A DNA stretch of 64,000 bases, taken from assembly GCA_036555275.1 (NCBI GenBank), contig DATBLR010000041.1, positions 1,711-65,710 of the forward strand, read 5' to 3'. Under the pieces are notes generated by a model. It made no database searches. It saw nothing but the letters and a program-made list of their open reading frames with translations, and was not told where the DNA came from. Both the position numbers and the translations under genes were made by a program. Below, in pieces: positions 7,340-47,648 of this stretch; positions within the stretch are counted from its first letter, which is position 1, and each line of letters opens with the position of its first letter. The stretch comes from Gemmatimonadales bacterium (GTDB taxonomy: Bacteria > Gemmatimonadota > Gemmatimonadetes > Gemmatimonadales > GWC2-71-9).

Positions 7340-7649
7340 CTACCGCGTCATCTCGCTCTGGTGTTCCCTGCCCCGCCCGGCAACTTCGAGGGTGCACTCT
7401 CCATCTGTGTGATGCCACCCAAGCTCGTAGACCAGGTCTGCCAAGCAGCCCGCCTACGGCACTACAGCCCGGCTCGCCCGAGGCTTCAGCTTCCGCCACT
7501 CCTCCGCCACCCATTTGCTGGATGACGGCTACGATATTCACACCGCGCAGGGGTTGCTGGGGCACGGGGACGTCGGCACCACCATGATCTACACCCACGT
7601 GCTCAACCAGGGTGCGTTCGGGGTGCGGAGTCCGGCTCACTGGGTGTGA
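7340..7649 (+). pseudogene. intI: integron integrase (IntI) 3' remnant, 5'-truncated and frameshifted
   Basis: Frame ending at TGA 7647-7649 reads [52 protein letters not shown], matching the IntI C-terminal pattern [38 protein letters not shown]. An in-frame TAG sits at 7428. Upstream similarity ([18 protein letters not shown]) continues in another frame. No N-terminal two thirds is present. Confidence 0.8.
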
Positions 7650-7677
7650 ACCGGGCGAGTCGCCTAGATTGGGGGTC

Positions 7678-8295
7678 ATGGATCTGAGGTCCTTCACCGT
7701 CCAGGCGGAACTCAGGGATGGGACGCCTGTGGTGATTCGCGCGATACGTCCAGAGGACAAGGGCGCGCTCCGCTGGGGGTTCACCCGGCTGTCGCAGGAG
7801 GCGATCTATCAGCGGTTCTTTCAGGCCAAGCGCGAGTTAACCGACGACGAGCTCCACTACCTCACCGACGTGGATTTCCAGGATCACGTGGCGCTCGTCG
7901 TGGAGGCGGCGGTTGAGGGCACGGCCCGGATCATCGGCGTAGGCCGGATGGTGCGCCTCGCCCGGCGCGGAGCGCCGGACCGCGCGGAGGTCGCCTTCAC
8001 GGTGGGAGATCCGTTCCAGGGGCGCGGGGTGGCCACGCTGTTGCTCGAGCAGCTGGTTCGACTTGCGCCGGCGCTTGGGGTGCACGTCTTCGAGGCCGAG
8101 GTGTTGCCGCACAACCGGCAGATGCTGGAGGTCTTTGAACACAGTGGGCTGGGGATTACGGAGCGGGCGGGCGAGGGAGTGGTGCATGTCGAGCTCGCGC
8201 TACCTGGCTCGACCGTAGCTGGTGGGGTTCAGGAAGGACCCCGAGCGGGTGCGGGTGATGCGGGGGCTGGGGCTGGGGACGGCGGCGCGGGGTGA
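7678..8295 (+). CDS. GNAT family N-acetyltransferase
   Basis: ORF 7612..8295 trimmed to ATG 7678 (GGGGG upstream). FQGRGVATLLLEQL acetyl-CoA motif. Gly/Ala-rich tail. Confidence 0.8.
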   Translation: MDLRSFTVQAELRDGTPVVIRAIRPEDKGALRWGFTRLSQEAIYQRFFQAKRELTDDELHYLTDVDFQDHVALVVEAAVEGTARIIGVGRMVRLARRGAPDRAEVAFTVGDPFQGRGVATLLLEQLVRLAPALGVHVFEAEVLPHNRQMLEVFEHSGLGITERAGEGVVHVELALPGSTVAGGVQEGPRAGAGDAGAGAGDGGAG

Positions 8296-8586
8296 CGCTG
8301 GGCGGGAGCGGTGCGGGAGCTCCTGGGACCGGTGCGTCGCGGTCCGTGCGTCACAGTGGGAGGTGGCGGGGGCGGATCCAGGCCGGGCTGGGCAATGGAG
8401 GCGCAGGAGGAATACCGTAGTCGCCACTGTTGGCGCGTTCTTCTCACCCGATCCTCTACCGCTCCCAGCCGGCGGGAGCGTCCCCGCACGTTGTGCGTTT
8501 TATTACACTGCCGGCGAGCACTTGTTGCGCAGGAGAAGTCGGGGGTCTCGAGGGATTAGGGGGCCTTATGAGCCGTTGCGAATATC

Positions 8587-8638
8587 GGTGCGAGGTGCGG
8601 GTGCTTGCGGGTGTGGCAAGGCGCAGTACTAGTTAGGC
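8587..8638 (+). other. candidate attI: GGTGCG-type direct repeats plus core GTTAGGC
   Basis: ggtgcgaggtgcgggtgcttgcgggtgtgg (8587-8616) is followed by GTTAGGC at 8632-8638. No matching RYYYAAC partner or palindrome lies upstream, unlike the downstream attC sites. Confidence 0.4.
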
Positions 8639-8667
8639 AGCGGGCCCCGCTCACCCCCACGTAGCGT

Positions 8668-8976
8668 TTGCGAAGAGTCACGTCAGGAACCGCCGTTTGC
8701 GCCCTTTGCCGCCAGGTCGTTCGGCCTGACGATGATGTCGTCATAACGCCCGACTTCCTAGCCGATCACACCGACCCACTCTGGCGCTACACCGACGCTG
8801 TTGTGCACCGCCCCTGCTTCCTGGTTTGGGATCAGCGCAAGATATTTATCGCCCGCTACAACCGCGTTGCGCGTCGCATGGTGGCCGAGGACGGCTCCTA
8901 CCCCCAGATGACCGGGGAGGGCGCGATTGTGCAGCGTCGCGGTGGTCGTGGGTCCCGGCGGGGCCCCGCTGCCTAA
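8668..8976 (+). CDS. hypothetical protein (cassette ORF)
   Basis: ORF 102 aa with TTG start. Its TAA stop lies inside the GCCTAAC heptamer of the following attC. Confidence 0.55.
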   Translation: MRRVTSGTAVCALCRQVVRPDDDVVITPDFLADHTDPLWRYTDAVVHRPCFLVWDQRKIFIARYNRVARRMVAEDGSYPQMTGEGAIVQRRGGRGSRRGPAA

Positions 8977-9093
8977 CCGCGCATGCACCAGCCAGGGCGC
9001 GGCCGTCGGTTCTCGACGGTCTGGCCCTACCAGGTGTCGTCCGGTAGGTTCCCAGTCCTAGCCGCGGCCCGCAGGTGATGCGCGGTCGCTAGC
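8971..9093 (+). repeat. integron attC site, family 1
   Basis: 5' GCCTAACCGCGCATGCACCAGCCAGGGCGCGGCCGTCGG ... 3' CCGCAGGTGATGCGCGGTCGCTAGC. The arms are complementary; the last heptamer is degenerate. Confidence 0.75.
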
Positions 9094-9098
9094 TGGCG

Positions 9099-9572
9099 AT
9101 GTCTCAGATGCGCATCTACCCTCTGCTGACTCTCCCCCTAGCCTGCTTCATCACCTCCGCACAGGCGCAGGTGGTCTCGCAGGACTCGCCCAAGCACTAT
9201 CGCCTGCCACAAGAATTCCTGTTCGCACCGCATGCCGTTGTGGCGGCTCTCCAAGACCGTGGCTGTCAGATCCCGCAGTACGACCGCTCGCCTGCGCCCA
9301 ACAATCTGGTCGCGAGGCATTTCCTTGCGCCTGCCTCGACCGACTGGGCTGCGCTGTGCTCGCGAGCCGGGGTTTCCACACTCCTCGTCCTTCATGGTCC
9401 GACCTGGCACGACCTCGACTCTGTGGCGGCGGCCCCTGATCTCCCAGGCCATGGCATCTTCGTGGCGGCGCCGGAGTGGATCCGGCAACGTGTCGGCTCC
9501 GTTCGGGCTGATTCCCTGGACCCACCCATCACTCACGACGGTGTCGAGACGGAGCCGGCTGCTGCTCCGTGA
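9099..9572 (+). CDS. hypothetical secreted protein
   Basis: ORF 157 aa. Signal peptide MSQMRIYPLLTLPLACFITSAQAQ. Confidence 0.6.
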   Translation: MSQMRIYPLLTLPLACFITSAQAQVVSQDSPKHYRLPQEFLFAPHAVVAALQDRGCQIPQYDRSPAPNNLVARHFLAPASTDWAALCSRAGVSTLLVLHGPTWHDLDSVAAAPDLPGHGIFVAAPEWIRQRVGSVRADSLDPPITHDGVETEPAAAP

Positions 9573-9627
9573 TCCGCTATCACACCTCATCAGGCTGGCG
9601 TGTGTATCCTGGGGCTCAATGATCGCC

Positions 9628-9763
9628 AGCGAACCAGCGCATGCACTTCCCAGGCGCGGCATACCCCGTCGGCCGTGCCAAGCGGCTTTGCGGCGTCGTA
9701 GCAAGGAACGTAAGTTCGTTCAGGTTTGAGCCTGCGCCCGCAAGTGATGCGCGGGCGAGCCGG
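9628..9763 (+). repeat. integron attC site, family 1 (degenerate cores)
   Basis: 5' AGCGAACCAGCGCATGCACTTCCCAGGCGCGGC ... 3' GCCCGCAAGTGATGCGCGGGCGAGCCGG. Confidence 0.6.
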
Positions 9764-9800
9764 GCACAGCAGTCATTGGCATTCCCACTACGAGGCCCAA

Positions 9801-10097
9801 ATGGTCGCCGCAACTCGCACAACCGCCGGCGCTAAGAAGCGGAGACTTGCCGCGAAGAAGGCCGCGGCGAAGACCAAGCGGCGTCGGGCGGCTAAGAAGG
9901 CTGCTCTCACTCGCAAGCGAGGCACTGCTGCTCGGAAAGCGGCCGTCACCCGCAAGCGTCGGGCAGCCGGGAAGAAGGCGGCCCTTACGTCCAACCGTCG
10001 GCGTGCTGGTCGCAAGGCCGCCGCCACTCGACGCGAATCCCTGGAGGCCCAGGTATCGGCCCAAGCAGCGACGGGCATCATCCCGATCGAGCCCTGA
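9801..10097 (+). CDS. histone H1-like / Ala-Lys-Arg repeat basic protein
   Basis: ORF 9726..10097 trimmed to ATG 9801. AKKRRLAAKKAAAKTKRRRAAKKAALTRKRGTAARKAAVTRKRRAAGKKAA repeats. Confidence 0.6.
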   Translation: MVAATRTTAGAKKRRLAAKKAAAKTKRRRAAKKAALTRKRGTAARKAAVTRKRRAAGKKAALTSNRRRAGRKAAATRRESLEAQVSAQAATGIIPIEP

Positions 10098-10118
10098 GAC
10101 GTTGTCCGGTCTGGTGCC

Positions 10119-10243
10119 GGCTAACCAGCGAATGGACCAGCCGGGGCGCAGCCGTCGCCTTGTTAATGGCTGGCACCACCCGCAGCGGCGGGTAGGTTCT
10201 CCGCGACGAGCCGCGCCCCGCAGGTGATGCGCGGGCGTTAGGC
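10119..10243 (+). repeat. integron attC site, family 1
   Basis: GGCTAACCAGCGAATGGACCAGCCGGGGCGCAGCCGTCG ... CGCCCCGCAGGTGATGCGCGGGCGTTAGGC. 125 bp. Confidence 0.85.
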
Positions 10244-10276
10244 AGCAGCCTGGTTCGCATATAAGCCCTTCACGGA

Positions 10277-10907: not shown

Positions 10908-11495
10908 AGACCGGGTACATGGGTGACAGTGCCGCGGTCAGTCATGCAGGATGTACTCCCGTTCATCGAAGCGGGCGAGCAGGACTCGGTTGAAGTAGAC
11001 CGACCAGATCCCATCCCCCACTTCCTCGAGCCCGACGGGCAGCTGGCGCAACGGATTGGCCAGAAACCGCAGTTTGCGCTTGAAGCGAATCGTGCCCGCG
11101 TTGGTCACGCGCTTGACGAGATAGTGGCCGCGGTACTCGATCGGGGGCAGGCGCTCGGGGAACGGCCGTGGCGAGGGGCGGTAGCGCGACGCCGGCGTCC
11201 GACCCCGCAGGGTCTCATGGGGCCGCTCTTCATTGTATTCCTGCCAGAACCGATTGAACGCCCGCTGCTGGACGGCGAGACTCCCGCGGGGCGGGCGGAT
11301 GGCGCCGGCCTTCAGGGTCTTGCGCATCCGCTCATGGGCGCCGTTCTCCTGGAGGCGCGCGGGCCGAATGCGCTGATGCTGAATGCCGAGGTACATCCAC
11401 CTCCAGCCAGGGCAAAGCTCACCTCGAAGAAGGTGACCGAGTCTAGCAGTGTTACCCATGTCCCCGGTCTCTTGTGTTACCTATCTACCCGGTCT
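10908..11495 (-). mobile_element. IS481-like insertion sequence, internally deleted (non-autonomous)
   Basis: Terminal inverted repeats: AGACCGGGTACATGGGTGAC (10908-10927) versus the reverse complement of GTTACCCATGTCCCCGGTCT (11451-11470), 18 of 20 matching. A second tandem copy GTTACCTATCTACCCGGTCT lies at 11476-11495. The element encloses a transposase C-terminal fragment. Confidence 0.7.
10938..11459 (-). pseudogene. DDE transposase (rve integrase-core, IS481-type) C-terminal fragment
   Basis: 173 aa: LGIQHQRIRPARLQENGAHERMRKTLK...FWQEYNEERPHETLRGRTPASRY...VGLEEVGDGIWSVYF. The N-terminal HTH and the first part of the catalytic core are absent. The apparent ATG lies inside the inverted repeat. 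Confidence 0.75.
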
Positions 11496-11507
11496 GTACC
11501 GGCGGAC

Positions 11508-11635
11508 ACCTAACTACCGCATCAACCTGCCAGGCCGTGGCCCTCGGTTTTCTACAAGCCGGCACAACCGGGGGGTGCACAGGCCAGGCTTGCCGTGCTC
11601 ACCGCCGCCCTCCAGCTTATGCGGGACCGTTAGGT
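11508..11635 (+). repeat. integron attC site, family 2
   Basis: ACCTAACTACCGCATCAACCTGCCAGGCCGTGGCC ... GGCTTGCCGTGCTCACCGCCGCCCTCCAGCTTATGCGGGACCGTTAGGT. 128 bp. Confidence 0.85.
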
Positions 11636-11666
11636 CGCCACCCCACTCACACGCCAGACTCCGCCA

Positions 11667-12218
11667 ATGCCCCTTCCTGACCCAGAGCTCTGGCCCCGCA
11701 AGCCGCTCGATGGAATAACGCCCCTACTCCAGCCCGTGGCTCATGTCTTGAGTCACGCGAAGAGGGAACTCCCCAGGGTCCTCGCCGACCTGTCCGCCGA
11801 CGAGCTTTGGTCTGAACCAGCTGGCGTGCCCTCGCTTGGCTTTCAGCTGGCGCACTTGGCCGGGAATATCGACCGCCTCTTCACGCATGCTCGCGGCGAG
11901 CCCCTTACTCTGCTTCAACGTGCACAGCTGGCCCAGGAAGGCGCGGCGTCCAGTCTGCGCCCTCCACTGGCCGACCTCCTCGGCCGCCTGGACGTGATCC
12001 TCGACAACTCCTTGACTCAGCTCCAGGAACTACACCCAGAGCGCCTGCTTGAGACACGCGACATCGGAACGGGCGACGCCTATCCGACGGTGTTCGATCT
12101 CCTCTCGAGCGCGGCTGAACATACCAGTCGCCACCTCGGCCAAATCGCGACCACTGCACAGGTGCTCCGAGATCTCGGCGCCAAGCGACGAAGCCCAGGC
12201 GGCCAAAGCACCGCATGA
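11667..12218 (+). CDS. DinB family protein
   Basis: ORF 183 aa. LQPVAHVL...GFQLAHLAGNIDRLFTHARGE...AAEHTSRHLGQI pattern. Paralogue of 43150..43671. Confidence 0.8.
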   Translation: MPLPDPELWPRKPLDGITPLLQPVAHVLSHAKRELPRVLADLSADELWSEPAGVPSLGFQLAHLAGNIDRLFTHARGEPLTLLQRAQLAQEGAASSLRPPLADLLGRLDVILDNSLTQLQELHPERLLETRDIGTGDAYPTVFDLLSSAAEHTSRHLGQIATTAQVLRDLGAKRRSPGGQSTA

Positions 12219-12301
12219 AGCTGCCAGGCTACGGCCGTCTGAATGTGGCTGGGCTGGCATTCACGCGCCGGGCCCTGCACCTTAATGCGGGGACGTTAGG
12301 C
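12202..12301 (+). repeat. integron attC site, family 2
   Basis: GCCAAAGCACCGCATGAAGCTGCCAGGCTACGGCCGTCTG ... CCTTAATGCGGGGACGTTAGGC. The ORF's TGA stop lies inside the left arm. Confidence 0.75.
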
Positions 12302-12407
12302 CGCAGCACCAAGGCTTTGTCGTAAGCGCCCCGCAAGGGATCGCGGACCACCATCACCCACGGGGTAAGCGGCCAGACGTATCGAAGGGACCGTTTGGAG
12401 CCTCCCC

Positions 12408-13988
12408 ATGCACGAGCACGTCACTCTCGAGCGCCCCGACGCGCGTGACCCGACCGCTCGCGGCATCTCGTCGGGATTCCCGACCGATCTCCTCAGCCAG
12501 TCTGCCGCCCGCCTCCGCATCCTCGCCCTCCTGTACGCGTTCGTCTTCTTCATGGCCGGGATCTTCCCGGCGCTGCTGTTCCCGGGCGATCGGGCCCGAT
12601 TCCTCGGGAGCTTCGTGCAGTGGGGTCCCAGCGTGATCGGGATCGTGGCAGCGTTGCTCGTCGCGGCGGCGATCCGGAACGTGCGTCTTCCGCTTCCCAC
12701 GGCGATGAACATCGGCCTGGCATTCGAGATCGCCAGTAGCTACGCCATCGCCGCGGCCGAGTTCGCCGATCCGCTGGGACTCGAGATGCACCGTGGCATG
12801 ATTGGGCTCTCGTGGGTCGCCGTATGGATCGTGCTGTTCACGGTCGTCGTGCCGACCTCGCCTCGCCGGGCGCTGGTGGCCGCCCTGGCATCGGTCAGCT
12901 CGGTCCCCGTCGTCATCGGGCTCATGATCGCGTCCGGCGCCACCTCATTCAGGCTAGACCCGGCACAGTTCTTCTTCGGGCTCGTGTTCCCTTACCTCCT
13001 CGTGGTGGGCATGGCCTATGTGGGTGCCCGCGTGGTCTACCACCTGGGCACCGAGGTCAAGCGCGCGCGCGAGCTGGGCAGCTACCGCCTGGAGGAGCGA
13101 TTGGGGCGGGGCGGCATGGGAGAGGTCTGGCGGGCACGGCATCGCATGCTGATTCGTCCCGCCGCGATCAAAGTCATTCGGCCCGCTCTCGCAGGAGGTT
13201 CACCCTCCGCATCGGAAGAGGCGGTGCGCCGCTTCGAGCGGGAAGCACAGACGATTGCCCGCCTCCGGTCGCCCCACACAGTCGAGCTCTATGATTTCGG
13301 GATCGCCGCTGACGGCGCCTTTTACTACGTCATGGAACTGCTCGATGGCCTCGATGCGGATGCGCTGGTGCGGCGGTTCGGGCCGATTCCCGCTGGGCGG
13401 GCGATCTATCTATTGCAGCAGGTCTGTCATTCCCTCTCGGAGGCGGAGTCCCAGCGCCTGGTCCATCGCGACATCAAGCCAGCGAACATCTTCCTCTGCC
13501 GGTATGGGGAGGATTGCGACTTCGTCAAGGTATTGGATTTCGGCCTGGCGAAGGCCATCGGCACTTCGGATGCGACTGCGGAGCCACCACTCACCGGCGA
13601 GAACATAGTCCCCGGCACCCCAGCCTTCATGGCCCCGGAGCAGGCGCTTGGCAAGGGGGACCTCGATGGCCGGGCCGACATTTACGCCACCGGCTGCGTG
13701 GCGTACTGGTTGCTGAGCGGGCACCTTGTGTTCACCGCCGACACCCCGATGGAGCTGCTCCTCCACCACGCACGGACCCCACCGACGCCTGTATCGGCCC
13801 GCACCGAACTGCCAATCTCCCCGGCCCTCGACCGGGTTGTCCTGTCGTGCTTGGCAAAGGACCCCGCAAATCGACCACAGTCCGCACATGATCTGTCGCG
13901 CCAGCTCGCAGAGATCGATGGTGCGGACGACTGGACCCAGCATCAGGCGCGAGAGTGGTGGGCTACGCACTATCCGATGCGGTCGTAA
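12408..13988 (+). CDS. membrane-anchored Ser/Thr protein kinase
   Basis: ORF 526 aa with GGAG upstream. About 220 aa of polytopic hydrophobic N-terminus, then kinase motifs GRGGMGEVW, AIK, HRDIKPANIF, DFGLAK, GTPAFMAPE. Confidence 0.9.
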   Translation: MHEHVTLERPDARDPTARGISSGFPTDLLSQSAARLRILALLYAFVFFMAGIFPALLFPGDRARFLGSFVQWGPSVIGIVAALLVAAAIRNVRLPLPTAMNIGLAFEIASSYAIAAAEFADPLGLEMHRGMIGLSWVAVWIVLFTVVVPTSPRRALVAALASVSSVPVVIGLMIASGATSFRLDPAQFFFGLVFPYLLVVGMAYVGARVVYHLGTEVKRARELGSYRLEERLGRGGMGEVWRARHRMLIRPAAIKVIRPALAGGSPSASEEAVRRFEREAQTIARLRSPHTVELYDFGIAADGAFYYVMELLDGLDADALVRRFGPIPAGRAIYLLQQVCHSLSEAESQRLVHRDIKPANIFLCRYGEDCDFVKVLDFGLAKAIGTSDATAEPPLTGENIVPGTPAFMAPEQALGKGDLDGRADIYATGCVAYWLLSGHLVFTADTPMELLLHHARTPPTPVSARTELPISPALDRVVLSCLAKDPANRPQSAHDLSRQLAEIDGADDWTQHQAREWWATHYPMRS

Positions 13989-14247
13989 CCGTGCGCCGGT
14001 GGCGGAGTTCAACCGGGCCCTCGCGCGCGTGAAGTCCGGAAGCCTCCCCTTCTCGCGAGATGCCATCACTCCGGAACACCGAACCTCAAGGAAGGGGACG
14101 CCCCGCAGGTGCAAGGCACCAATGCCAAAGCGGCCTTGTATGGTGGAGCTGAGCCGTTGAAGTAGCTTGGGAGTGCGGCAGACCGATCGGCCCGGCGCTG
14201 GCGCGCCCGCCGAGGCTGCGCCCGCAGCTCATGCGCGGGCGTTTAGA
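13984..14247 (+). repeat. composite / rearranged attC region
   Basis: CGTAACCGTGCGCC at the kinase stop. A family-1 right arm starts at GACGCCCCGCAGGTG (14098) but breaks off. A second complete right arm CTGCGCCCGCAGCTCATGCGCGGGCGTTTAGA ends at 14247. Confidence 0.4.
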
Positions 14248-14266: not shown

Positions 14267-14728
14267 ATGGCAACTCCGGCCGCACGCTCGCTCTGGACCT
14301 GCCCCAAGTGTCGGCACCGCTTCGTCACCAAGAATCTCTGGCATTCCTGCGTCCGCGTCCCGCTCCGCTCCCATTTCCGCGGTCGCGCAGCCGCCCTGTA
14401 CCCCACCTATCGCGCCTGGGCGGCGCTGGCTCGGGCCTGCGGACCCGTCACCATCTATGCTCAGAAGACGCGGATTGTCTTCCAGGCCCGCGTGCGGTTC
14501 GCCGGCGCCGTCGTCCGCGCGGGGTACCTGGATGCCGGCTTATGGCTCCGGCGGCGCGTCCATCATCCGCGCCTCCGCCGGACCGAGTCCTTTGGTTCCC
14601 TCGGCTACGGACTGCACTTCCGGCTCACCCAACCCAGCGATATCGATGGCGCCTTGGGCCAGTTGATGCGGGAGGCGTACGGGCTGGCCCGCAGCGGACT
14701 GCCTACCGCTCGGCGCAAGGACGTGTAG
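14267..14728 (+). CDS. hypothetical protein (DUF5655-like by recollection; N-terminal CxxC...HxC)
   Basis: ORF 14231..14728 trimmed to ATG 14267. MATPAARSLWTCPKCRHRFVTKNLWHSC. TAG stop lies inside GTGTAGC of the next attC. Confidence 0.6.
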   Translation: MATPAARSLWTCPKCRHRFVTKNLWHSCVRVPLRSHFRGRAAALYPTYRAWAALARACGPVTIYAQKTRIVFQARVRFAGAVVRAGYLDAGLWLRRRVHHPRLRRTESFGSLGYGLHFRLTQPSDIDGALGQLMREAYGLARSGLPTARRKDV

Positions 14729-14848
14729 CCAGCGCATGGACCAGACGGGGCGCGGCCGCCGGGTTGCCCGGCTCTGGCAGGACTGAACGTCTCGGCATAT
14801 GGTTCCCAGACCGCGCCGCGCCCCGCGGGTCATGCGCGGACGTTGGGT
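14723..14848 (+). repeat. integron attC site, family 1
   Basis: GTGTAGCCAGCGCATGGACCAGACGGGGCGCGGCCGCCGGG ... CGCCCCGCGGGTCATGCGCGGACGTTGGGT. 126 bp. Confidence 0.8.
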
Positions 14849-15148
14849 GGCACGTACCCAGGGGCATTTACGATCGACGACCCTTCAGACCAGTCACGTG
14901 CGCAACGAGACTACCGCGGGCTCATCATTCTGGCGGTGCTGGGCGGGCTTGAGGTGGCGATTCTCTATGCCCTGATCGCGCTCGAGACTCCGTTGACGCC
15001 GCTAGTGCACCGCTTGTTGGAGAGTGCCCTGGGTGTCTTCCTGCTCGTGATTTGGGTAACGGGTCTCCTCAGTGCTGGCATGTGGGGGTTTGCGTCCTGG
15101 GCGGAGTGGTACCACAAGAAGCAAACAGGGAGCGCGCGGCCACGGTGA
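14843..15148 (+). CDS. small membrane protein
   Basis: ORF 101 aa. The only in-frame start is TTG 14843, inside GTTGGGT. Two hydrophobic helices (LIILAVLGGLEVAILYALIAL, GVFLLVIWVTGLLSAGMWGF). Confidence 0.45.
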   Translation: MGGTYPGAFTIDDPSDQSRAQRDYRGLIILAVLGGLEVAILYALIALETPLTPLVHRLLESALGVFLLVIWVTGLLSAGMWGFASWAEWYHKKQTGSARPR

Positions 15149-15324
15149 GGTCGACCGGTGGCTGGCTCGATCTGCACAAGCGGAAGCGCGTTGCGCCGAC
15201 CGACTTGCTCGCGGTCTTTCAACAGGTTCCCCGCGCCCCCGCCTTTGTCGAACTGCCTCTTCTCCGCGGCAGCCCGGAGGCGGCGGCTCAAGGTCCTGCG
15301 GCGCGCGGCCGCGGCGCGGTCTAA
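15145..15324 (+). CDS. possible 59-aa ORF translationally coupled to the preceding gene
   Basis: GTG 15145 overlaps TGA 15146-15148 (GTGA). Its TAA stop lies inside GTCTAAC (15319-15325). No family recognised. Confidence 0.25.
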   Translation: MRSTGGWLDLHKRKRVAPTDLLAVFQQVPRAPAFVELPLLRGSPEAAAQGPAARGRGAV

Positions 15325-15365
15325 CCAGCGCACGAAGCTCTCGGCGTTCCCGCTGGCGGTTGCCA
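15319..15365 (+). repeat. very short attC-like site
   Basis: GTCTAAC CAGCG cacgaagctctcggcgttcc CGCTG gcg GTTGCCA. AACCAGCG and CGCTGGCGGTT are complementary. Confidence 0.4.
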
Positions 15366-15368
15366 CCC

Positions 15369-15896
15369 ATGTCAAGATCCTCTGCCAGGCGACCGCCCTC
15401 CACCCCCATCGCCCTTCACCCCTCTTTCCTGGCCGACGCCATGCTGGAGCGATTGGCGCGCTGGCTTCGCGTCCTCGGCTACGACGTCCTGTCCGCAAAC
15501 CTTGCCGGTCCAGAAGCTGAGGCCCTCTTGGCCAAGGCCGCCTCCCAGGGCCGCATTATTCTCACTCGCAACCGCCAGCTCGCCGTGCCCGGGCTCGAGG
15601 GCGACATTCTCTTCGTCGATGCCTCCTCTCCCCTCCATCAGCTCTCCCACGTCCTGGCCCAGCTCCATCTTCACGGCCCGTGGAGGCTCTTCACCCGGTG
15701 CCTGATCTGTAACGCTGCCCTCCTTCCGGCTCCGACGTCTCCGCCGACCTCGGGCTCCCCTGCGTCCCCCTTAGACACCGCCCCGCGCCATTGTCCTCAT
15801 TGTGGGCGCCAGTACTGGGAAGGGGTCCACACTCGGCGCATGAGGGCCGCCCTGAAACGAGCGCTCGGCCCTGGTTTTGCCGAACTCGCCGGCTGA
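15369..15896 (+). CDS. Mut7-C RNase domain protein (DUF82, PIN-like plus zinc ribbon)
   Basis: ORF 15072..15896 trimmed to ATG 15369. FLADAMLERLARWLRVLGYD, RIILTRNRQL, RCLICN...CPHCGRQYWEGVHTRRM. Confidence 0.75.
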   Translation: MSRSSARRPPSTPIALHPSFLADAMLERLARWLRVLGYDVLSANLAGPEAEALLAKAASQGRIILTRNRQLAVPGLEGDILFVDASSPLHQLSHVLAQLHLHGPWRLFTRCLICNAALLPAPTSPPTSGSPASPLDTAPRHCPHCGRQYWEGVHTRRMRAALKRALGPGFAELAG

Positions 15897-16018
15897 CCAC
15901 CGCCCGAAGCTAGCAGGGCGCGGCCGTCCGGTCGTCTGTAACAGAGACGGACGGATGGTGCTCGGGCCGAGCTTGCCGTGCTCGCCGGCACGCCACAGCT
16001 TAGGCGGGATCGGTATGT
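15891..16018 (+). repeat. integron attC site, family 2 (degenerate cores)
   Basis: GGCTGACCACCGCCCGAAGCTAGCAGGGCGCGGCCGTCC ... GAGCTTGCCGTGCTCGCCGGCACGCCACAGCTTAGGCGGGATCGGTATGT. TGA stop lies in GGCTGAC. Confidence 0.65.
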
Positions 16019-16069
16019 GGCCCACCGCGTGCTAATCGTGTCCTCCGATCAGCCAGAGAGGGATCTCTG

Positions 16070-17701: not shown

Positions 17702-18271
17702 ATGCGCACGGACAACCTCTATTCAGTCCCACCAAACCTCCCCGCCCCTCAGGATGACGGGGCCTGCGCCCACCTCGTCGGCCTAGACCTTCCCTCGATT
17801 TCCCTCCCGGCGACGACCGGCGGTGAGGTCACACTGGCGGCAGGCACAACGCGCTGGACGGTAGTCTACGCCTACCCCCGAACCGGACTCCCTGACCGGC
17901 CTTCGCCCCCCGGCTGGGACGATATCCCGGGAGCGCGGGGATGTACCCCTCAGAATTGCGCATTCCGAGACCACTTCACCGAGCTCCAGAACCTAGGGGC
18001 GGCCGTGTATGGGCTCAGCACGCAATCCACGGCCTACCAGCAAGAGATGGCGGCTCGCCTCCACCTGCCCTTCCCCGTCCTCAGCGACGAACGGCTCGAG
18101 TTCACTCAGGCTCTGGACCTGCCCACATTCCGGTACGGAGAGTGGACCCTGCTGAAGCGCCTGAGCCTGATCGTGGAGGGCCGACGCATCGTCCACGTCG
18201 TATACCCGGTTTTCCCTTCCAACGCGGATGCGCCCGCGGTTCTGTCATGGCTGCGTGCGCGTGTCAGCTAA
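17702..18271 (+). CDS. peroxiredoxin (AhpC/TSA, Bcp-like)
   Basis: ORF 189 aa. VVYAYPRTG...PGARGCTPQNCAFRD...PFPVLSD. Confidence 0.8.
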   Translation: MRTDNLYSVPPNLPAPQDDGACAHLVGLDLPSISLPATTGGEVTLAAGTTRWTVVYAYPRTGLPDRPSPPGWDDIPGARGCTPQNCAFRDHFTELQNLGAAVYGLSTQSTAYQQEMAARLHLPFPVLSDERLEFTQALDLPTFRYGEWTLLKRLSLIVEGRRIVHVVYPVFPSNADAPAVLSWLRARVS

Positions 18272-18392
18272 CCACCGCTCGAAGGTGCCGGGGCGCGGCC
18301 ATCGGGTTGCTTGGAGCTGAGGCAGGCCCGGCCGTGCCTGGGAGGCTTGCCGACCTGGCCGCGGCCCTACAGCTTCCATGAGAAGGCTAATG
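18266..18392 (+). repeat. integron attC site, family 2 (degenerate right arm)
   Basis: AGCTAACCACCGCTCGAAGGTGCCGGGGCGCGGCCATCGGG ... CTACAGCTTCCATGAGAAGGCTAATG. TAA stop lies in AGCTAAC. Confidence 0.55.
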
Positions 18393-18606
18393 TGTCAAGG
18401 CCGACGTGGCGGCCGCCCCTCCCGACTCCCCGACTCGCTTCCATCCGCGCTCGAATCGCTGCACTCGGCACCTGGTGCACGGTGAGGTTCGCCCGGTCCG
18501 GTGCTGCTGATCTTAATGCACGGCCTCGAGGACCCAAGCTGCAAGCCGCAGTCACCGACCCGGGCGGTGGAGTTCGAGGGAGCAGGGGTCGCCACCGGCC
18601 TCGGGA

Positions 18607-19357
18607 TCAGGCCGTGCTGCGCAGGGGCTCGTAGACGGCCCCAGTGATCCAGAGACGATGGAGCAGCGTCGCCAGCTGGCGGGCGACCCCCACCACCGCG
18701 CGCTTCTTGCCGTTCTTCCCCCCGCGGGCTGCCACCTGGAGCCCCCAGCGCCGGAGCGTACAGTCGGGCCCAAAGGGTCCGAGCACATACGGCGCACCGT
18801 TCACCAGCAACCGGCGGAGCATCGCATCGCCCTGCCTGGTAATTCGGAGCGGGGATGGCGGTCCCCAGAGTCCGCCTGCTTCGGACAGAGTCCGAGGTAC
18901 GCCCCCACCGCCCGGCTGGTTCGGAAGCGGGCCGGGTCCTCCAGCGTCAGCACGTAACAGAGACTCGTCAGCGGGCCGACCCCGGCTACCTGGCGGAGGC
19001 GAGCGGTCTCGGGATAGCGGGTCCGCGCCACTTGGGCCAGCGCCCGCTCCGCCGCGAGGATCTGCACGGTAAGCGCCTCGATCAAGGCGAGCAGCGGCTG
19101 CAGCGCTGGCTGGAGTGGCGTGGGGACCTCAGGCGCCACCCGCCGTGGGAACGCCGGGGCGGAGCTCGCGGGGAGGCGGCCGCCGACCGCGTTCACCGCG
19201 CCCCGGACATGATTGATGAGCTGGGTGCGCGCCCGCACGAGGCAGTCCCGCGCCCGCAGCTGGGCCAGGTCGGCCTGCGCCTGGGCGCTGCGGTGCTGGA
19301 TCGGCGCCAGGAGTCGGACGTCCAGGCGGCCATCCGGGCCAGGGCTTCGGCATCGAT
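18607..19357 (-). mobile_element. IS110-family transposase gene remnant (5'-truncated, at least 2 frameshifts)
   Basis: Read in three frames: IDAEALARMAA / LLAPIQHRSAQAQADLAQLRARDCLVRARTQLINHVRGAVNAVGGRLP...LRQVAGVGPLTSLCYVLTLEDPARFRTSRAVGAYLGLCPKQADSG / LRRLLVNGAPYVLGPFGPDCTLRRWGLQVAARGGKNGKKRAVVGVARQLATLLHRLW. Confidence 0.75.
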
Positions 19358-20289: not shown

Positions 20290-20520
20290 CGGAGCCGGTG
20301 ATCCAGGAATGGGTCCATAGCGCCTTCATCGGGACGGACCTGGATGCCCACCTGCGGGGTGCAGGCATTCACCCGCCTGCTCGGGGGTGGCCTCACCACG
20401 GACTACTGCGTCTCGACCACAGGATCGCTGCGAACCGAGAGGTCGCCCTGACCACCATGCATGAGGAGTTCGCCGCTGGCCGCCTGGCGAAGGACGTGCT
20501 CTCAGAGAGCCCCCTCCGGA
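20290..20520 (+). pseudogene. isochorismatase-family hydrolase remnant (5'-truncated, frameshifted)
   Basis: VIQEWVHSAFIGTDLDAHLRGAGIH, then in another frame LLGGGLTTDYCVSTT, then MHEEFAAGRLAKDVL. The N-terminal half is absent. Confidence 0.55.
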
Positions 20521-20524
20521 GGCC

Positions 20525-20566
20525 GGCTGACCAGCGCATCGACCGGTCGGGCCGCGGGCGTCAGAC
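20525..20566 (+). repeat. internally deleted attC (family 1 ends only)
   Basis: GGCTGACCAGCGCATCGACCGGTCGGGCCGCGGGCGTCAGAC. 42 bp. Confidence 0.45.
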
Positions 20567-20612
20567 AGACGCAGTATCTTTCAGGTATGCTTCCCTACTT
20601 CGCTGAGGCTGT

Positions 20613-21429: not shown

Positions 21430-21438
21430 GGCCTTGCC

Positions 21439-21523
21439 ACCTAGCCGGCGCGTGCACCTGCCAACGCGCGGTCTTACCGCTATTTTGAGTCCGACTTCAC
21501 CAGTCGCGCGGTGCACCTCAGGC
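21439..21523 (+). repeat. integron attC site, family 1 (mutated cores)
   Basis: ACCTAGCCGGCGCGTGCACCTGCCAACGCGCGGTC closely parallels the family-1 left half. Right end is GCGCGGTGCACCTCAGGC. Confidence 0.55.
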
Positions 21524-21557
21524 GCAGGACAGCAGGGGGCCGCGACAGGAACTTGCC

Positions 21558-21878: not shown

Positions 21879-22198
21879 GGTCGGAAGCGAGCAGGGAAGC
21901 CGGGGTGACCACGCACCATCATTGGGCGACCGCGGTCGGATGCGTCCGGCTTGCCCTGCTTGGGCTCGCACACGGAGCCGGGGGCCTATCGGCGCCCTCC
22001 TCTGATTGGGGGGCCGCGCTACTCGGGCGCTCCGGCCGGCAATGCATGAGCTCCATTGGTCATGCGTGACCCGCGTTCCAGGGTCCGGCTCAGGCGGTTA
22101 TCCTCCCGCAGCGCATGGACTCGGCAGGGCGTAGCCGCCCCACCGGCCCCTAGTCGATCCCGGCTCCTCCAGCACCCGCTCTGTCCCCAAGGTTATCT
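21872..22198 (+). repeat. cluster of three attC-like elements without intervening ORFs
   Basis: (1) GCCTTAGGGTCGGAAGCGAGCAGGG...GGCTTGCCCTGCTTGGGCTCGCAC (family 2-like). (2) Right half GGTCATGCGTGACCCGCGTTCCAG ending at 22081. (3) CCGCAGCGCATGGACTCGGCAGGGCGTAGCCGCC...CCAAGGTTATCT ending at 22198. Confidence 0.45.
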
Positions 22199-22287: not shown

Positions 22288-22602
22288 GTGTCAGCTGCCA
22301 GTCCCACCCAGCACCGTATCACCCTGCACGGCCGGGTTCTGCATTTCGTGGCCTACGAGGCCGAGCCGGCCGAGCCGCGACGTGGCGAGCCTTCCCGGCC
22401 ACCCATGTGGTACCTGATGAGCGAGGGGAAGCGTCATCCCGTTATGGAGCACCTCGTGGGTCAATCACTTGCGGCTCTCGACAGGACCCTGCGCGAATGG
22501 GCCGAGGCGAATGCCTTCGGGCCAGTCGCTGCCCCCACCATGCGAGCGCAATTCCAACGTCAGACGGCTGACTTGCGGCAGGGCGATTGGTGGGGTGCCT
22601 AA
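22288..22602 (+). CDS. uncharacterised cassette family, paralogue 1 (HFV.YE / MWYLM / WWG motifs)
   Basis: ORF 22219..22602 trimmed to GTG 22288 (GGGAG upstream) by alignment with paralogues 2 and 3. VSAASPTQHRITLHGRVLHFVAYEAEP...PPMWYLMSEGKRHP...WAEANAFGPV...DWWGA. TAA stop lies inside GCCTAAC. Confidence 0.65.
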   Translation: MSAASPTQHRITLHGRVLHFVAYEAEPAEPRRGEPSRPPMWYLMSEGKRHPVMEHLVGQSLAALDRTLREWAEANAFGPVAAPTMRAQFQRQTADLRQGDWWGA

Positions 22603-22723: not shown

Positions 22724-22744
22724 AGCCCGAAAGACGGCCCTGAC

Positions 22745-23493: not shown

Positions 23494-23512
23494 ATGAAGT
23501 TGCCCACTTGGG

Positions 23513-23639: not shown

Positions 23640-23671
23640 GGCAACAACCTTCGCCGTGGCCGAGGAGCACG

Positions 23672-30891: not shown

Positions 30892-30906
30892 ATCATAGGA
30901 GCCGCG

Positions 30907-32228: not shown

Positions 32229-32469
32229 GAGTCCGCTCTCCCTCTGCTGATTGTCAATCCTCGGACAGGCACGGCACTCCTGCGGTCTACCAATGATGCC
32301 AGAGCAAGGCCCGCTCGACTGAGCCCGCAGCCCATCGCGGCAGTGACCAGAGGCACGCTCCCTGTCCAGGATGGCTTGTCGCCGCTCACCCCGGCCTGCA
32401 GCTTATACAGGATCGCTGCGCAGACAAGTCGAGCGGCAATCAGTCATTGAGCCTCCAGGACCACAGGCC

Positions 32470-33806: not shown

Positions 33807-33979
33807 GAATCTGTCAAGCCGTCGGCCCTGTGCGAGCGCGGTCCCTCGCCGGCCTCCACCCTGCGGCCATCGGTTGGTTCCACCCTGGCACCGCCAGGTA
33901 TCCCCGCGTACAGTTCTTGAAACCGCCGCGGGCCGCAGGGGATTTGCGGTCGTCAGCGAGCCCTTGCCCCCGGTTCCTC

Positions 33980-34771: not shown

Positions 34772-34881
34772 GCCCCGAGCGGCCGCCGGGAGCCGCATGA
34801 ATCCGCCAGGACGCGGCCATCGGCTTGTAAGGGGCCGGGCTCATTGCCTTGCATGTGGGCATCCACGGTGAGACGTTGACC
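34766..34881 (+). repeat. attC-like site, family 2 left half
   Basis: GCCTAGG...AGCCGCATGAATCCGCCAGGACGCGGCCATCGG parallels the left halves at 30774 and 12202. Right end is CTTGCATGTGGGC...GAGACGTTGACC. Confidence 0.5.
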
Positions 34882-36335: not shown

Positions 36336-36653
36336 ATGTCCGCGTTTAAACCCCAGCAGCGCCATCTCACGATCCACGGGCGCGTGTATCACTTCGTCTC
36401 TTACGAGGGCGAGCCGGCCAACAAGCACCATGACCAGCCGGCACGCCCCGCCATGTGGTACCTGATGGCCGAGGGACGGCGATACCCGGCAGTCCCCTCC
36501 GACCCAACGCAGAGCGAGCCAGAGGTTGATCGCGCTCTGGCGCGCTGGGCCGTGGCCAACACACAGGGCCCGGTTGAGCCACCGCCGCGCCCCGCAGCCG
36601 CGAAAGATCACCCCCCAGCCAAGCGACCGAGGAACTGGTGGGGGCCTAACTAG
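36336..36653 (+). CDS. uncharacterised cassette family, paralogue 3
   Basis: ORF 105 aa with GGAG upstream. MSAFKPQQRHLTIHGRVYHFVSYEGEP...PAMWYLMAEGRRYP...WAVANTQGPVE...NWWGPN. It ends in the GCCTAAC-TAG junction. Confidence 0.7.
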   Translation: MSAFKPQQRHLTIHGRVYHFVSYEGEPANKHHDQPARPAMWYLMAEGRRYPAVPSDPTQSEPEVDRALARWAVANTQGPVEPPPRPAAAKDHPPAKRPRNWWGPN

Positions 36654-36762
36654 CGCGTGCACCAGTCGGGGCGCGCCCGTCACATGTGGGCCGCCGCACC
36701 TTGCCGTGTGAGCGGAATCCGGCAGGCAGACCGCTCGGCCCCGGAGGATCGCATGACCCACG
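36644..36762 (+). repeat. integron attC site, family 1 (right arm degenerate)
   Basis: GCCTAACTAGCGCGTGCACCAGTCGGGGCGCGCCCGTC ... CCGGAGGATCGCATGACCCAC. Confidence 0.6.
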
Positions 36763-40241: not shown

Positions 40242-40365
40242 GCCTAACTAACTCCCCGGCGCGGGCACGCCTCGGAGATCGATGGCCCAACGGCCGGCTC
40301 CAGCCGCGCCCGGGTGAGCTTGCCGAGACGGCTCATGGCCTGCAGCTTATGCAGAGTCCTCAGGC
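40242..40365 (+). repeat. integron attC site, family 2
   Basis: GCCTAACTAACTCCCCGGCGCGGGCACGCC ... GAGCTTGCCGAGACGGCTCATGGCCTGCAGCTTATGCAGAGTCCTCAGGC. 124 bp. Confidence 0.7.
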
Positions 40366-46160: not shown

Positions 46161-46397
46161 CCACGGGGCGCGCCGATCTACTCGACCCGCGTGTTACACG
46201 CATGCACCGCCAAAGTGGGAGCTGCGTGAGCCCGCGGCTTGAGCACGGCCGCACTTCAGCTAACATCCACCGCGCACCCCATGTTGGAGGCCGAATGCGG
46301 CCCATAGAGTACTCCACGCCGCGGCGGCACGCACCATCTGAACGCTCGTCAGCCGCCGGCGCAGCACTGCCAGGCTGACCGTCCCAAATCCCCACGC

Positions 46398-46784
46398 ATG
46401 TGGTACCGCCTGCTGGCCGACGCTGTCGTCATGGTGCACTTCGGCTTTGTGCTGTTCGTCGTTTTCGGCGGGCTTCTCGTCAACCGGCACAGCTGGGCCG
46501 TCTACCTGCATGTGCCCGCGGCTGTCTGGGGAGCAGTGATCGAATTCACCGGGTGGATCTGCCCGTTGACGCCCTGGGAGCAGACCCTGCGCCGTCTCGG
46601 CGGCGAGGCCGGCTATGCTGGGGGATTCATCGAACACTACCTGCTCCCCGTACTCTATCCACCGGGGCTTACCACCACCGCTCAGACTGTGCTTGGGCTT
46701 GCCGTCGTCGGAATCAATGCAGTAGTCTACGGCCGGTTGCTGAACCGGCGCCGGCGTCAGCGATCGATGGCGTCCCGCCGGTAG
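46398..46784 (+). CDS. DUF2784 domain membrane protein
   Basis: ORF 128 aa. VMVHFGFVLFVVFGG...GWICPLTPWEQTLRR...YLLPVLYP. Confidence 0.7.
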   Translation: MWYRLLADAVVMVHFGFVLFVVFGGLLVNRHSWAVYLHVPAAVWGAVIEFTGWICPLTPWEQTLRRLGGEAGYAGGFIEHYLLPVLYPPGLTTTAQTVLGLAVVGINAVVYGRLLNRRRRQRSMASRR

Positions 46785-46800
46785 CGGCTCCGCGAGTGAC

Positions 46801-46903
46801 ACCTGTCTCATCGCGCCTGAAGCTGGAACCCGATGCCAGCCTGTCCCGGCCTCGGCGCCTTGCCCAAGGCAGCCTCGGCCGGCAGCTTACACGAGGCTTC
46901 ATC
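46801..46903 (+). repeat. attC-like site, family 2 (degenerate)
   Basis: ACCTGTCTCATCGCGCCTGAAGCTGGAACCCGATGCCAGCCTGTCCCGGCC ... GGCAGCTTACACGAGGCTTCATC. Confidence 0.45.
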
Positions 46904-46935
46904 TCTATGCTCGCTGGTGCAGCAGGTGGACCAGG

Positions 46936-47217
46936 ATGGTGCTCATGGCGGTGCTGGTTATCGCGGAGGTCCCGGGTCAGACCCAGCAGGGGTATGACGG
47001 AATGCTCGGCATGCTCACAGGCGCCTTGAAACAGGCCCCCGGGCTCATCCTGCACACGGCGCATCCGACCGAAGGGGGCTGGCGAGTAATCGAGATCTGG
47101 GAGTCGCAGAACGACGCGAATCAGTTCTTCGCCAAGAACGTCCACCCCCACCTGCCACCGGGCATCAAGCCAAGACGGTCGTTCCAGGAATTGCACAGCC
47201 TCGTGACCCCCGGATAG
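46936..47217 (+). CDS. small ferredoxin-fold (ABM/Dabb-like) protein
   Basis: ORF 93 aa. VIAEVPGQTQQGYDGML...GLILHTAHPTEGGWRVIEIWESQNDANQFF. Confidence 0.55.
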   Translation: MVLMAVLVIAEVPGQTQQGYDGMLGMLTGALKQAPGLILHTAHPTEGGWRVIEIWESQNDANQFFAKNVHPHLPPGIKPRRSFQELHSLVTPG

Positions 47218-47229
47218 GAGCACCACCCC

Positions 47230-47586
47230 ATGCCTCCTCGCTCCCTGGTTCGCGCCTTTCTCATCCTGTACGTGACCGTCGGCATCATTGTCTGCCTCGA
47301 GAGCGTCCAAACGGTCATCGCCGCCCTCCAGGGGGGCTTCTCTCCCAGCAACCGACCCCACGCGCTGTTGCTGGGCGCCCTCGAGACCGCCGCCGCGATT
47401 CTGTTTCTCATCCCCCGCACCATGCGCTGGGGCGCCGCTGGCCTCCTCACGATCTTTGTCCTCGCCTTCGGGCTGCACCTGGCCGGCGGACACCCCAACT
47501 TTGCCCTGCTGATCTACGCTGCGGCCGTCCTGTTCATCCGCGTCCACGGAGTGCAGGGCTACCGCTGGTCGGCGATGGCTGCCTGA
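47230..47586 (+). CDS. DoxX-like membrane protein (tentative)
   Basis: ORF 118 aa with four hydrophobic helices. TGA stop lies in GCCTGAC. Confidence 0.5.
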   Translation: MPPRSLVRAFLILYVTVGIIVCLESVQTVIAALQGGFSPSNRPHALLLGALETAAAILFLIPRTMRWGAAGLLTIFVLAFGLHLAGGHPNFALLIYAAAVLFIRVHGVQGYRWSAMAA

Positions 47587-47648
47587 CTCGCGCCCGGCCT
47601 CGAAACGAGCGACGGTCATGGGGACTGACCGGAGCGCCCCCGTTGCCG
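47581..47648 (+). repeat. short attC-like site (last convincing one in the window)
   Basis: GCCTGACTCGCGCCCGG ... CCGGAGCGCCCCCGTTGCCG. 68 bp. Confidence 0.5.

Follow-up and report, generated by a model that had tools for sequence, protein, structure and literature searches.

The DNA analysed here is a 64-kb stretch from a soil-type Gemmatimonadales bacterium, referred to below as the window. Pfam assigns purL, purF and ppdK to its left end, all on the + strand; ppdK, which encodes pyruvate phosphate dikinase (3714–6380, +), is the final gene of this core block and anchors the locus. Further along the same strand lie the 3′ end of an integron integrase gene (intI), a gene for a Pat-like GNAT acetyltransferase, a putative attI core and a long row of small genes interspersed with attC-type sites, after which small genes continue to the end of the window. 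We consider it very likely that the locus represents a sedentary chromosomal integron of Gemmatimonadales that has lost its integrase. In the categories of IntegronFinder it would be a large CALIN (cluster of attC sites lacking integron-integrase) beside an intI pseudogene. The observations behind this interpretation are the anatomy of the sites, their strand bias, the intI remnant, and the synteny of intI and the acetyltransferase gene in relatives.

An earlier note on this DNA, made from the sequence alone, had described imperfect palindromes that start with an RYYYAAC-type heptamer and end with a complementary GTTRRRY type. The left heptamers that it listed are indeed present on the + strand at 8971, 11508, 15319, 22597, 23923, 26972, 28800, 29565, 36644 and 40242, as is GGCTAAC at 10119, and the right heptamers were found at 10237, 11629, 12295, 14842, 23633 and 30885, with GTTAGCC at 22717 and GTTCAAC at 28920. 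Such heptamers are weak evidence when taken alone, with 82 RYYYAAC occurrences observed against 60 ± 9 expected. Pattern matching was unsuited for finding the sites because the R boxes are too degenerate; strict RYYYAAC…GTTRRRY pairing within 45–170 nt recovered a single true site. A search for direct repeats returned families of 31–71 nt, spaced 0.5–8 kb apart and confined to about 9–40 kb.

A covariance model, R1, was built from 11 aligned complete sites of the window. These measure 99–138 nt, which is within the known length range of attC sites. In a search of the whole window R1 gave 21 matches at E < 0.05, ten of them to sites that were not seeds. All were on the + strand, and nothing significant appeared 5′ of 8.9 kb or 3′ of 40.4 kb. 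Since many copies are truncated, separate hidden Markov models (HMMs) of the left and right arms were also built and iterated. At E ≤ 0.01 these half-site models matched 18 left and 15 right arms (33 in total), all on the + strand, with an extra right arm at E = 0.017 and zero matches on the − strand of the window; they also revealed a new right arm at 46859–46896. The union of the methods comprises 26 distinct attC-type sites, all on the + strand, extending from 8966 to 46896 over 38 kb. Of these, 11 are complete and about four more are complete but degenerate; the others are left-only or right-only halves. Both arms are kept in 11–13 sites. About five further weak remnants, at 23923, 26969, 27555, 40985 and 46255, were recognized by eye or at E values of 0.3–0.5. 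The array of the earlier note is therefore real, but its figure of more than 30 sites was slightly too high: 26 are supported, or about 31 if the weak remnants are included.

In control loci that total 1.49 Mb the half-site models gave no match at E < 0.01, and R1 gave one likely false match in 1.45 Mb (23 bits, within purL of locus L019). R1 also detected attC arrays beside independent intI genes at loci L100, L101, L099 and L118, and it can thus be regarded as a general attC detector and not just a model of the repeat in the window. Searches of the window against Rfam, at gathering and at permissive thresholds, matched nothing relevant; since Rfam has no attC family, this is no evidence against attC sites.

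The complete sites fall into two sequence subfamilies that alternate along the array, subfamily A having the form CAGCGCATGGACCAG...CAGGTGATGCGCGGGCGTTAGGC and subfamily B the form CACCGCATGAAGCTG...GCAGCTTATGCGGGGCCGTTAGGT. All complete sites served as R1 seeds. Subfamily A is represented by attC 1 (8966–9099; R1 110.3 bits; left HMM E = 8e-8, right 4e-9), attC 3 (10114–10248; 117.6 bits; fold −35.5 kcal/mol, z −2.1), attC 7 (14718–14853; 117.8 bits; fold z −3.2), attC 14 (22592–22728; 113.5 bits) and attC 17 (28795–28931; 115.7 bits; R′ is GTTCAAC). To subfamily B belong attC 4 (11503–11640; 121 bits), the short attC 5 (12197–12306; 99–110 nt; 79.9 bits; fold z −2.4), attC 9 with degenerate R boxes (15886–16023; 100 bits), attC 10 with a degenerate R′ (18261–18397; 92.2 bits), attC 15 (23508–23644; 100.9 bits; fold z −1.9) and attC 20 (30765–30896; 92.7 bits). 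The only site with both strict heptamers is attC 4 (ACCTAAC…GTTAGGT), and its fold shows the 7-bp R box, the spacer, the L box and the bulged bases.

The remaining sites, likewise all on the + strand, are in various states of decay. Degenerate copies are attC 2 (9623–9766; R1 25.3 bits, E = 2.2e-4, non-seed; left HMM 2.3e-4), attC 12 (21434–21542; 22.7 bits, E = 9.8e-4), attC 16 (24224–24347; 23.8 bits, E = 5.2e-4; left HMM 1.2e-5), attC 22 (33832–33963; 28.9 bits, E = 2.9e-5) and attC 25 (40261–40353, with GCCTAAC at 40242; 17.4 bits, E = 0.02; right HMM 0.017). The short attC 18 has a decayed R′ (29560–29646; 16.4 bits, E = 0.036; right HMM 1.5e-7), and attC 19 is weak (30352–30433; 18.2 bits, E = 0.012). 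A left half with a degenerate remainder was found for attC 23 (34779–34875; 22.3 bits, E = 0.0012; left HMM 9.5e-6) and attC 24 (36639–36725; 30.4 bits, E = 1.2e-5; left HMM 3.4e-7). Only the left half is left of attC 8 (15320–15344, GTCTAAC…; left HMM E = 1.1e-3) and attC 11 (20520–20571; R1 19.8 bits, E = 0.005; left HMM 3e-6), and attC 13 is a left-half fragment (22109–22138; left HMM E = 2.4e-4). Right halves only are attC 6 (14211–14245; right HMM E = 1.5e-4) and attC 21 (32374–32417; E = 1.7e-6). The last detectable site, attC 26, is a right-half remnant (46859–46896; E = 1.8e-4).

The canonical layout of an attC site comprises an R box, an unpaired central spacer, an L box, extrahelical bases and a variable terminal structure (PMC2727003). 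RNAalifold applied to the 11 complete copies yielded a bulged stem that joins the two ends. In a hand-specified structure of 23 pairs, consisting of the 7-bp R box followed by the L box and stem, standard pairing occurred in 78% of the cells, as compared to 31–39% when the 3′ partner was slid by 1–3 columns. Compensatory changes were found at eight pairs; the first L-box pair, for example, is CG in five copies and GC in five others. The left arm of each well-preserved site was also aligned with the reverse complement of its right arm. In this alignment the R boxes pair, RYYYAAC with GTTRRRY, as do the L boxes (..CGCAT with ATGCG..), and the unpaired spacer between them is asymmetric, with two extra nucleotides on the R′ side. 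The R″–L″ arm carries two extra bases, the first right after the L box and the second about 6 nt further in, and the centre of the sites is variable and 50–70 nt long. The R″–L″…L′–R′ architecture that had been proposed is thus upheld by R and L boxes supported by covariation and by the two extra bases on the R″–L″ arm. Folding of the bottom strand gave the expected hairpin with bulges for the sites at 10119, 11508, 12203, 14723 and 23513 (z −1.5 to −3.2).

Imperfect palindromes placed after open reading frames (ORFs), with fold z-scores that are modest, might also be repetitive extragenic palindromes of the REP/BIME (bacterial interspersed mosaic element) type or transcription terminators that by accident are dense here. 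REP/BIME repeats would be dispersed genome-wide and occur in both orientations. As far as the window and the control loci show, the family is instead strand-exclusive and clustered: all 33 significant half-sites lie on one strand within 8.97–46.9 kb, and none occurs in the 8.9 kb of core genes, in the 17 kb of the distal part or, at E < 0.01, in the 1.49 Mb of controls. The palindromes combine RYYYAAC and GTTRRRY ends with an asymmetric spacer and arm-specific extra bases, and no T-run was found in the family. Furthermore, an intI remnant adjoins the array, and the same family occurs 3′ of an intact IntI gene in L118. We therefore regard repeats or terminators as a very remote alternative to attC sites.

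The intI pseudogene, which the earlier note had correctly placed at the upstream end, occupies 7416–7650 on the + strand and was delimited by tblastn with P0005, P0100 and P0093. Of the gene, only the final ~75 codons are left, and these carry an in-frame stop. The deletion took away the first ~250 codons, among them those for the IntI-specific additional domain. Its best NCBIfam match is TIGR02249 (positions 262–312 of 315, 76 bits), with XerD at 52 bits. With ~250 codons lost and a stop in the rest, no integrase is made in cis. There is no other intI-like sequence in the 64 kb, also when tblastx was done with near full-length intI pseudogenes from other contigs. The window holds 26 attC sites, 11 of them complete, and of intI only this stub, with no copy that contains the additional domain of a complete integron. 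The remnant is co-directional with the cassettes and not divergent from them. The closest database relatives of the stub (P0002–P0120) are all 57–111 aa long, with annotated hosts that include Acidobacteriota and Gemmatimonadota. The possibility that these are conserved mini-proteins was considered and rejected: in L100 (8700–10321) and L101 (8900–10228) the corresponding ORF is the last one of a frameshifted, near full-length intI pseudogene.

About 30 bp 3′ of the intI remnant lies the GNAT gene (7678–8295, +; Pfam Acetyltransf_3/_1). Its product matches the GNAT domains of Pat/lysine acetyltransferases in the PDB with E values of about 1e-18 to 1e-21. It is followed by the putative attI core ACTAGTTAGGC (8626–8638, +), with a predicted crossover G|TT at 8632/8633, where the cassettes would begin. 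A TA(Y)TAGTTAGGC core is kept at this place in the window and in the relatives L102 and L115, in spacers that are otherwise diverged and 0.34–1.6 kb long, which is why we infer that the TAGTTAGGC junction is a putative attI core. Between the GNAT stop codon and this core, at 8422–8497 (+), are two terminator-like hairpins with T-rich tails. Hairpins of this kind are no more numerous than chance predicts; if these two are genuine, they would keep transcription from intI–GNAT out of the cassettes.

Relatives of the locus were found in a metagenome scan with the GNAT protein and by inspecting the context of IntI homologues. At seven loci (L102, L107, L114, L115, L116, L117 and L118) intI is followed on the same strand by the GNAT gene at a distance of 27–32 bp. 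IntI is full length (325–345 aa) in six of these; L102 has only the 3′ end, at a contig edge. The L107 IntI scores 443.6 bits against TIGR02249 (cutoff 265) and aligns end to end with VchIntIA (PDB 2A3V, E = 7e-90). The GNAT orthologues after intI in L102, L114, L115, L117 and L118 are 59–66% identical with an intact acetyl-CoA motif, and they resemble the GNAT domain of Pat-type protein lysine acetyltransferases. In L107 and L116, too, the gene after intI encodes a GNAT. In L114, L116 and L117 the intI–GNAT pair is located directly 3′ of purL-purF-ppdK, which is the locus of the window. Such a conserved position, in these three relatives and the window, together with a large array (at least 26 sites over 38 kb in the window) is characteristic of a sedentary chromosomal integron. 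A DUF4397 gene lies between ppdK and intI in L114 and L116 and is gone from the window; comparison of the loci indicates that the same 5′ deletion removed both the intI start and this gene.

Two conserved elements near the intact genes may be mentioned. The motif GCGTTTTCT(G/C)GCTCTGG occurs about 45 nt 5′ of the start codon of intact intI in five relatives (L107 at ~575–592; L114, L115, L116 and L118 at ~9945–9965) and is a candidate promoter or operator. The spacer between intI and GNAT contains a conserved CTAGATTG.

What follows the GNAT gene could be inspected in several relatives. In L102 the attI core is followed by a 75-aa ORF that is unrelated to the first cassette of the window and then by GCCTAACCAGC..., which is the start of a subfamily-A attC. 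L118, with intact IntI, has a subfamily-B attC (116.8 bits with R1) on the same strand, 5.3 kb 3′ of GNAT. The L115 contig ends exactly at the attI core; between GNAT and this core, at 12200–12650, it has four tandem copies of a ~100-bp repeat. In another Gemmatimonadota chromosome (L099) an attC lies co-directionally 3′ of an intI stub. In the window the + strand carries the intI remnant, the GNAT gene, the attI core, the top strands of the attC sites and the majority of the ORFs. The intI gene is thus directed toward attI and the cassettes, in L102 and L118 as well as in the window. The suggestion that cassette content might differ between genomes was also borne out, since the first cassette differs between the window and L102 and shared genes are reordered in L114.

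A different explanation for the co-directional intI would be a local rearrangement of a classical integron by an inversion or an IS event, with GNAT as the first cassette or as an unrelated core gene. There are IS fragments within the array, and in L019 a GNAT gene occurs beside ppdK where neither intI nor attC is found. Other soil integrons are indeed classical: R1 matches on two other soil MAG (metagenome-assembled genome) or metagenome contigs, L100 and L101 (the latter a Vicinamibacterales MAG), are on the strand opposite to the intI pseudogenes. Against a local event, the intI–GNAT order on one strand with a ~30 bp spacer recurs in seven independent relatives, six with full-length IntI, attC sites follow on the same strand in L102 and L118, and L115 ends at an attI core 3′ of GNAT. 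A rearrangement is consequently highly improbable. The reading of GNAT as a plain core gene, which L019 had suggested, was rejected because the seven relatives have intI followed by GNAT. Since this order is conserved in relatives and precedes the attI core, GNAT belongs to the platform and not to the cargo. The earlier note had counted GNAT proteins as cargo; this stands for a further GNAT in the array, but not for the first one, which is a conserved part of the platform and separates intI from attI.

As seen in relatives, the intact form of this co-directional integron lies 3′ of purL-purF-ppdK and consists, on one strand, of intI, a gap of ~30 bp, the Pat-like GNAT gene, a spacer of 0.3–1.6 kb, a putative attI core ...TAGTTAGGC, and the cassettes. 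Its operation would follow the established biology of integrons in general. IntI would fold the bottom strand of an attC site into a hairpin with the R box, unpaired spacer, L box and two extrahelical bases, and this hairpin would recombine with attI or another attC at G|TT of GTTRRRY. ORF–attC units would in this way be inserted and excised in one orientation. We infer that the array of the window was assembled by IntI in the past and is inactive at present.

Several observations weigh against the interpretation as a decayed integron. The first extra base of the R″–L″ arm is usually G on the top strand and hence C on the bottom strand, where the canonical base is a G. The folding of the bottom strand, suggested in the earlier note as a check, was only partly confirmatory: five sites gave the hairpin and its bulges, but the energies were modest and three other sites folded no better than shuffled sequences, overall z ranging from +1.4 to −3.2. 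The seeds of R1 are the window's own sites. In L114, with intI and GNAT intact, no recognizable attI or attC occurs in the following 10 kb, so that the link from platform to array is not seen in every relative. Finally, a promoter scan of 6381–8700 found nothing.

Genes of the array were obtained by mapping gene calls and precomputed Pfam matches from identical metagenome contigs onto the window. About 56 genes lie in 8.6–47.7 kb, mostly of 60–220 aa, and 46 of the 56 are on the + strand. The attC sites directly follow + strand ORFs, and in several cases, including those at 8974 and 22600, the ORF stops at the TAA within R″. These data agree with the description of palindromes after small co-oriented ORFs, and the cargo that had been named (GNAT, DinB, VOC, SRPBCC/AHSA1, membrane proteins and unknowns) was recovered among the Pfam matches on the identical contigs. 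It includes two DinB_2 and two RibD_C proteins, the further GNAT, and two SRPBCC/AHSA1 proteins that are each accompanied by a − strand ArsR-type regulator. Other matches are to HlyIII, EamA, 4HBT, Pyr_excise, Lactamase_B_2, PNPOx, Redoxin, SnoaL, Mut7-C, MarR, OmdA and DUF families, and many proteins had no match. An apparent pseudogenization of the Mut7-C and Redoxin genes was dropped, the differences being due to differing gene calls on identical sequence.

Several cassettes are paralogous: a family of 104–106 aa occurs three times, and DinB_2 and ArsR twice each. The 104–106-aa paralogues (22288–22602, 28489–28809 and 36336–36653) are 43–58% identical, and each is followed by GGTGGGG and a subfamily-A attC. 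A Ser/Thr protein kinase of 526 aa (12408–13988, +; Pfam Pkinase) is encoded by a single-gene cassette (12302–14246) between attC 5 and attC 6. Its kinase domain (residues ~220–510) matches the PADLOC models of the anti-phage kinase PD-T4-6 with E = 3e-78, and the N-terminal 220 aa are without assignment. Among the 77 proteins submitted to PADLOC, only this kinase and generic wHTH proteins, the latter as matches to Csa3, were recognized. Two IS fragments are on the − strand: an rve_3 integrase core within a cassette (10938–11396; precomputed Pfam on identical contigs) and a Transposase_20 fragment (18840–19238; precomputed Pfam on L007), for which the mapped frame holds a stop in the window.

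From 47.7 kb to the end of the window (47700–64000) gene calls and Pfam show a row of small, functionally unrelated genes, mostly on the + strand, in which neither R1 nor the half-site HMMs detected an attC 3′ of 47.6 kb. The intergenic gaps in this part are often too short to hold one. The row encodes NUDIX, glyoxalase/VOC, YjgF, PEMT, GNAT-like, VIT1 and DUF3224 proteins, and also a beta-lactamase-fold protein, DoxX, YjbR, DUF1203, a cupin and a GYD protein. The right boundary at 47648 that had been proposed for the array fits the last detectable attC remnant, but small co-oriented, cassette-like genes continue beyond it to at least 62 kb. The window and L114 share homologues in a different order: YjbR (67%) and VIT1 (79%), both in this distal row, HlyIII (74%) and two unknowns. 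Since the attC-less row that follows GNAT in L114 shares reordered homologues with both parts of the window, the distal 47.7–64 kb is probably an older part of the array that has fully decayed and consists of fossil cassettes.

The closest genome in GTDB, as judged from the ppdK product, is the Gemmatimonadales MAG that contains L019 (87% amino acid identity; the next best are Gemmatimonadetes MAGs at 61–68%). At this locus ppdK is followed by a gene for a DUF4397-like lipoprotein and then by a 62%-identical GNAT. There is no intI and no attC at the locus, and 8.5 kb of it contains zero GTTRRRY heptamers. Within 14097–22664 of L019, the kept GNAT gene is accompanied by a row of small + strand genes, including a HlyIII homologue of window gene 27670–28272. 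The L019 locus may represent the last stage in the decay of an integron at this place. A single clade would then provide a graded series, from intact integrase (L107, L116, L117 and L118) via a stub with a recognizable array (the window) to a locus with neither (L019), which can be read as a natural record of the death of an integron and of cassettes turning into ordinary chromosomal genes.

Proteins of the window have exact copies on many JGI and Logan metagenome contigs, which are 99.3–99.9% identical to the window; it therefore represents a well-sampled environmental population. Population contigs from several samples, 99.6–99.9% identical, show the same gene order, and the only structural polymorphisms are indels of 36 bp and 1197 bp. 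No gain, loss or reordering of cassettes was found among dozens of these contigs, and the array thus looks frozen. The half-sites, the IS fragments and the constant cassette order fit an array that is no longer maintained by recombination. The 1197-bp segment (51524–52720), which carries a 297-aa gene of unknown function, is present in the window and L018, and L016 and L017 have the dinucleotide AA in its place. Cassette excision was rejected as an explanation since there is no attC at the junction; an obvious inverted repeat was not found there either.

The array might still be a working reservoir if an intact IntI, encoded elsewhere or on a mobile element, acted in trans on the 11–13 complete sites. 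Eleven sites retain both arms with R1 scores of 80–121 bits, intact IntI of this clade is abundant in metagenomes, where 7992 IntI homologues were counted at ≥65% identity, and about half of the CALINs occur in genomes that encode IntI elsewhere (PMC4889954). A working reservoir is nevertheless unlikely in our view, given that dozens of population contigs show no cassette change, that the 1197-bp indel lacks an attC, and that the many half-sites fit relaxed selection. We therefore prefer the integron that has lost its integrase and is now frozen.

An integron in this state is of a known kind. A CALIN is defined as at least two attC sites without a functional intI, and 15 of 279 CALINs have an intI pseudogene within 10 kb; CALINs with fewer than 6 sites make up 83% and those with more than 10 sites 6.6% (Cury et al. 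2016, PMC4889954). The window shares with these the attC sites (at least two), the lack of a functional intI and the presence of IS sequences inside, but it is much larger than a typical CALIN, and the cause, a 5′ deletion of intI, is visible against intact relatives at the same locus. As far as they are summarized in PMC8618304, the Xanthomonas-type sedentary integrons with inactivated integrase (Gillings and co-workers) similarly occupy a fixed chromosomal locus beside a housekeeping gene and hold tens of cassettes, most of them of unknown function. Their attC sites are fairly homogeneous too, intI is inactivated, and the array is frozen within a lineage. Compared with that summary, the window differs in its host phylum, Gemmatimonadota, in having intI directed toward the cassettes, in the conserved GNAT between intI and attI, and in its two attC subfamilies and many half-sites.

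An intI that points toward the cassettes is known from Treponema (PMC3607928), and such integrons have been termed reverse orientation (PMC9668308). The likeness to the Treponema denticola type is one of orientation; the host phylum of the window is unrelated, and here a conserved Pat-like GNAT gene separates intI from attI. With the Vibrio cholerae superintegron (VchIntIA, VCR) the system shares the large array, long (~120–130 nt) homogeneous attC sites and, in the relatives, an IntI that aligns over its full length. The superintegron itself has the classical divergent intI–attI layout, a functional integrase and far more cassettes, and the first extrahelical base on the bottom strand is usually C in the window and not G.

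What seems new is the conserved co-directional intI–GNAT–attI platform, of which we could find no description in the searchable literature; for Gemmatimonadota, records of integrons exist at the level of the phylum (PMC8618304). We put forward, as a speculative and rather doubtful proposal, that the GNAT could be a functional third component of a distinct Gemmatimonadales integron class. It would be co-transcribed with intI toward attI and link the recombination or expression of cassettes to protein acetylation, the target being IntI, a host factor or a nucleoid protein. That the gene was kept when intI was lost, in the window and in L019, would on this view point to a second role, directed at the host, and with 47.7–64+ kb as older array the total would exceed 55 kb. 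If GNAT were functionally tied to the integrase, integron biology would gain a further level of regulation. Most of what is known of integrons outside Proteobacteria comes from automated surveys, whereas here the anatomy of a single lineage is open to direct reading. The cargo, with the PD-T4-6-like kinase, DinB, VOC, SRPBCC, the beta-lactamase-fold protein and the many unknowns, is also a sample of the cassette pool in a soil phylum that has been poorly cultured.

The G + C content of the window is 66–70% across its whole length. Neither the tRNA scan, which found zero tRNA genes in the window, nor the composition profile gave an island signature. Straight after the ppdK stop codon, the segment 6385–6560 contains G-rich tandem repeats of GGGTGGAC/GGGACGGC units and a perfect ~15-bp inverted repeat (GGGATCTACTCTCCG...CGGAGTAGATCCC), and four metagenome contigs terminate within it. 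Comparable GGGCGGNNNA decamer repeats are located just 5′ of the intact intI in L107.

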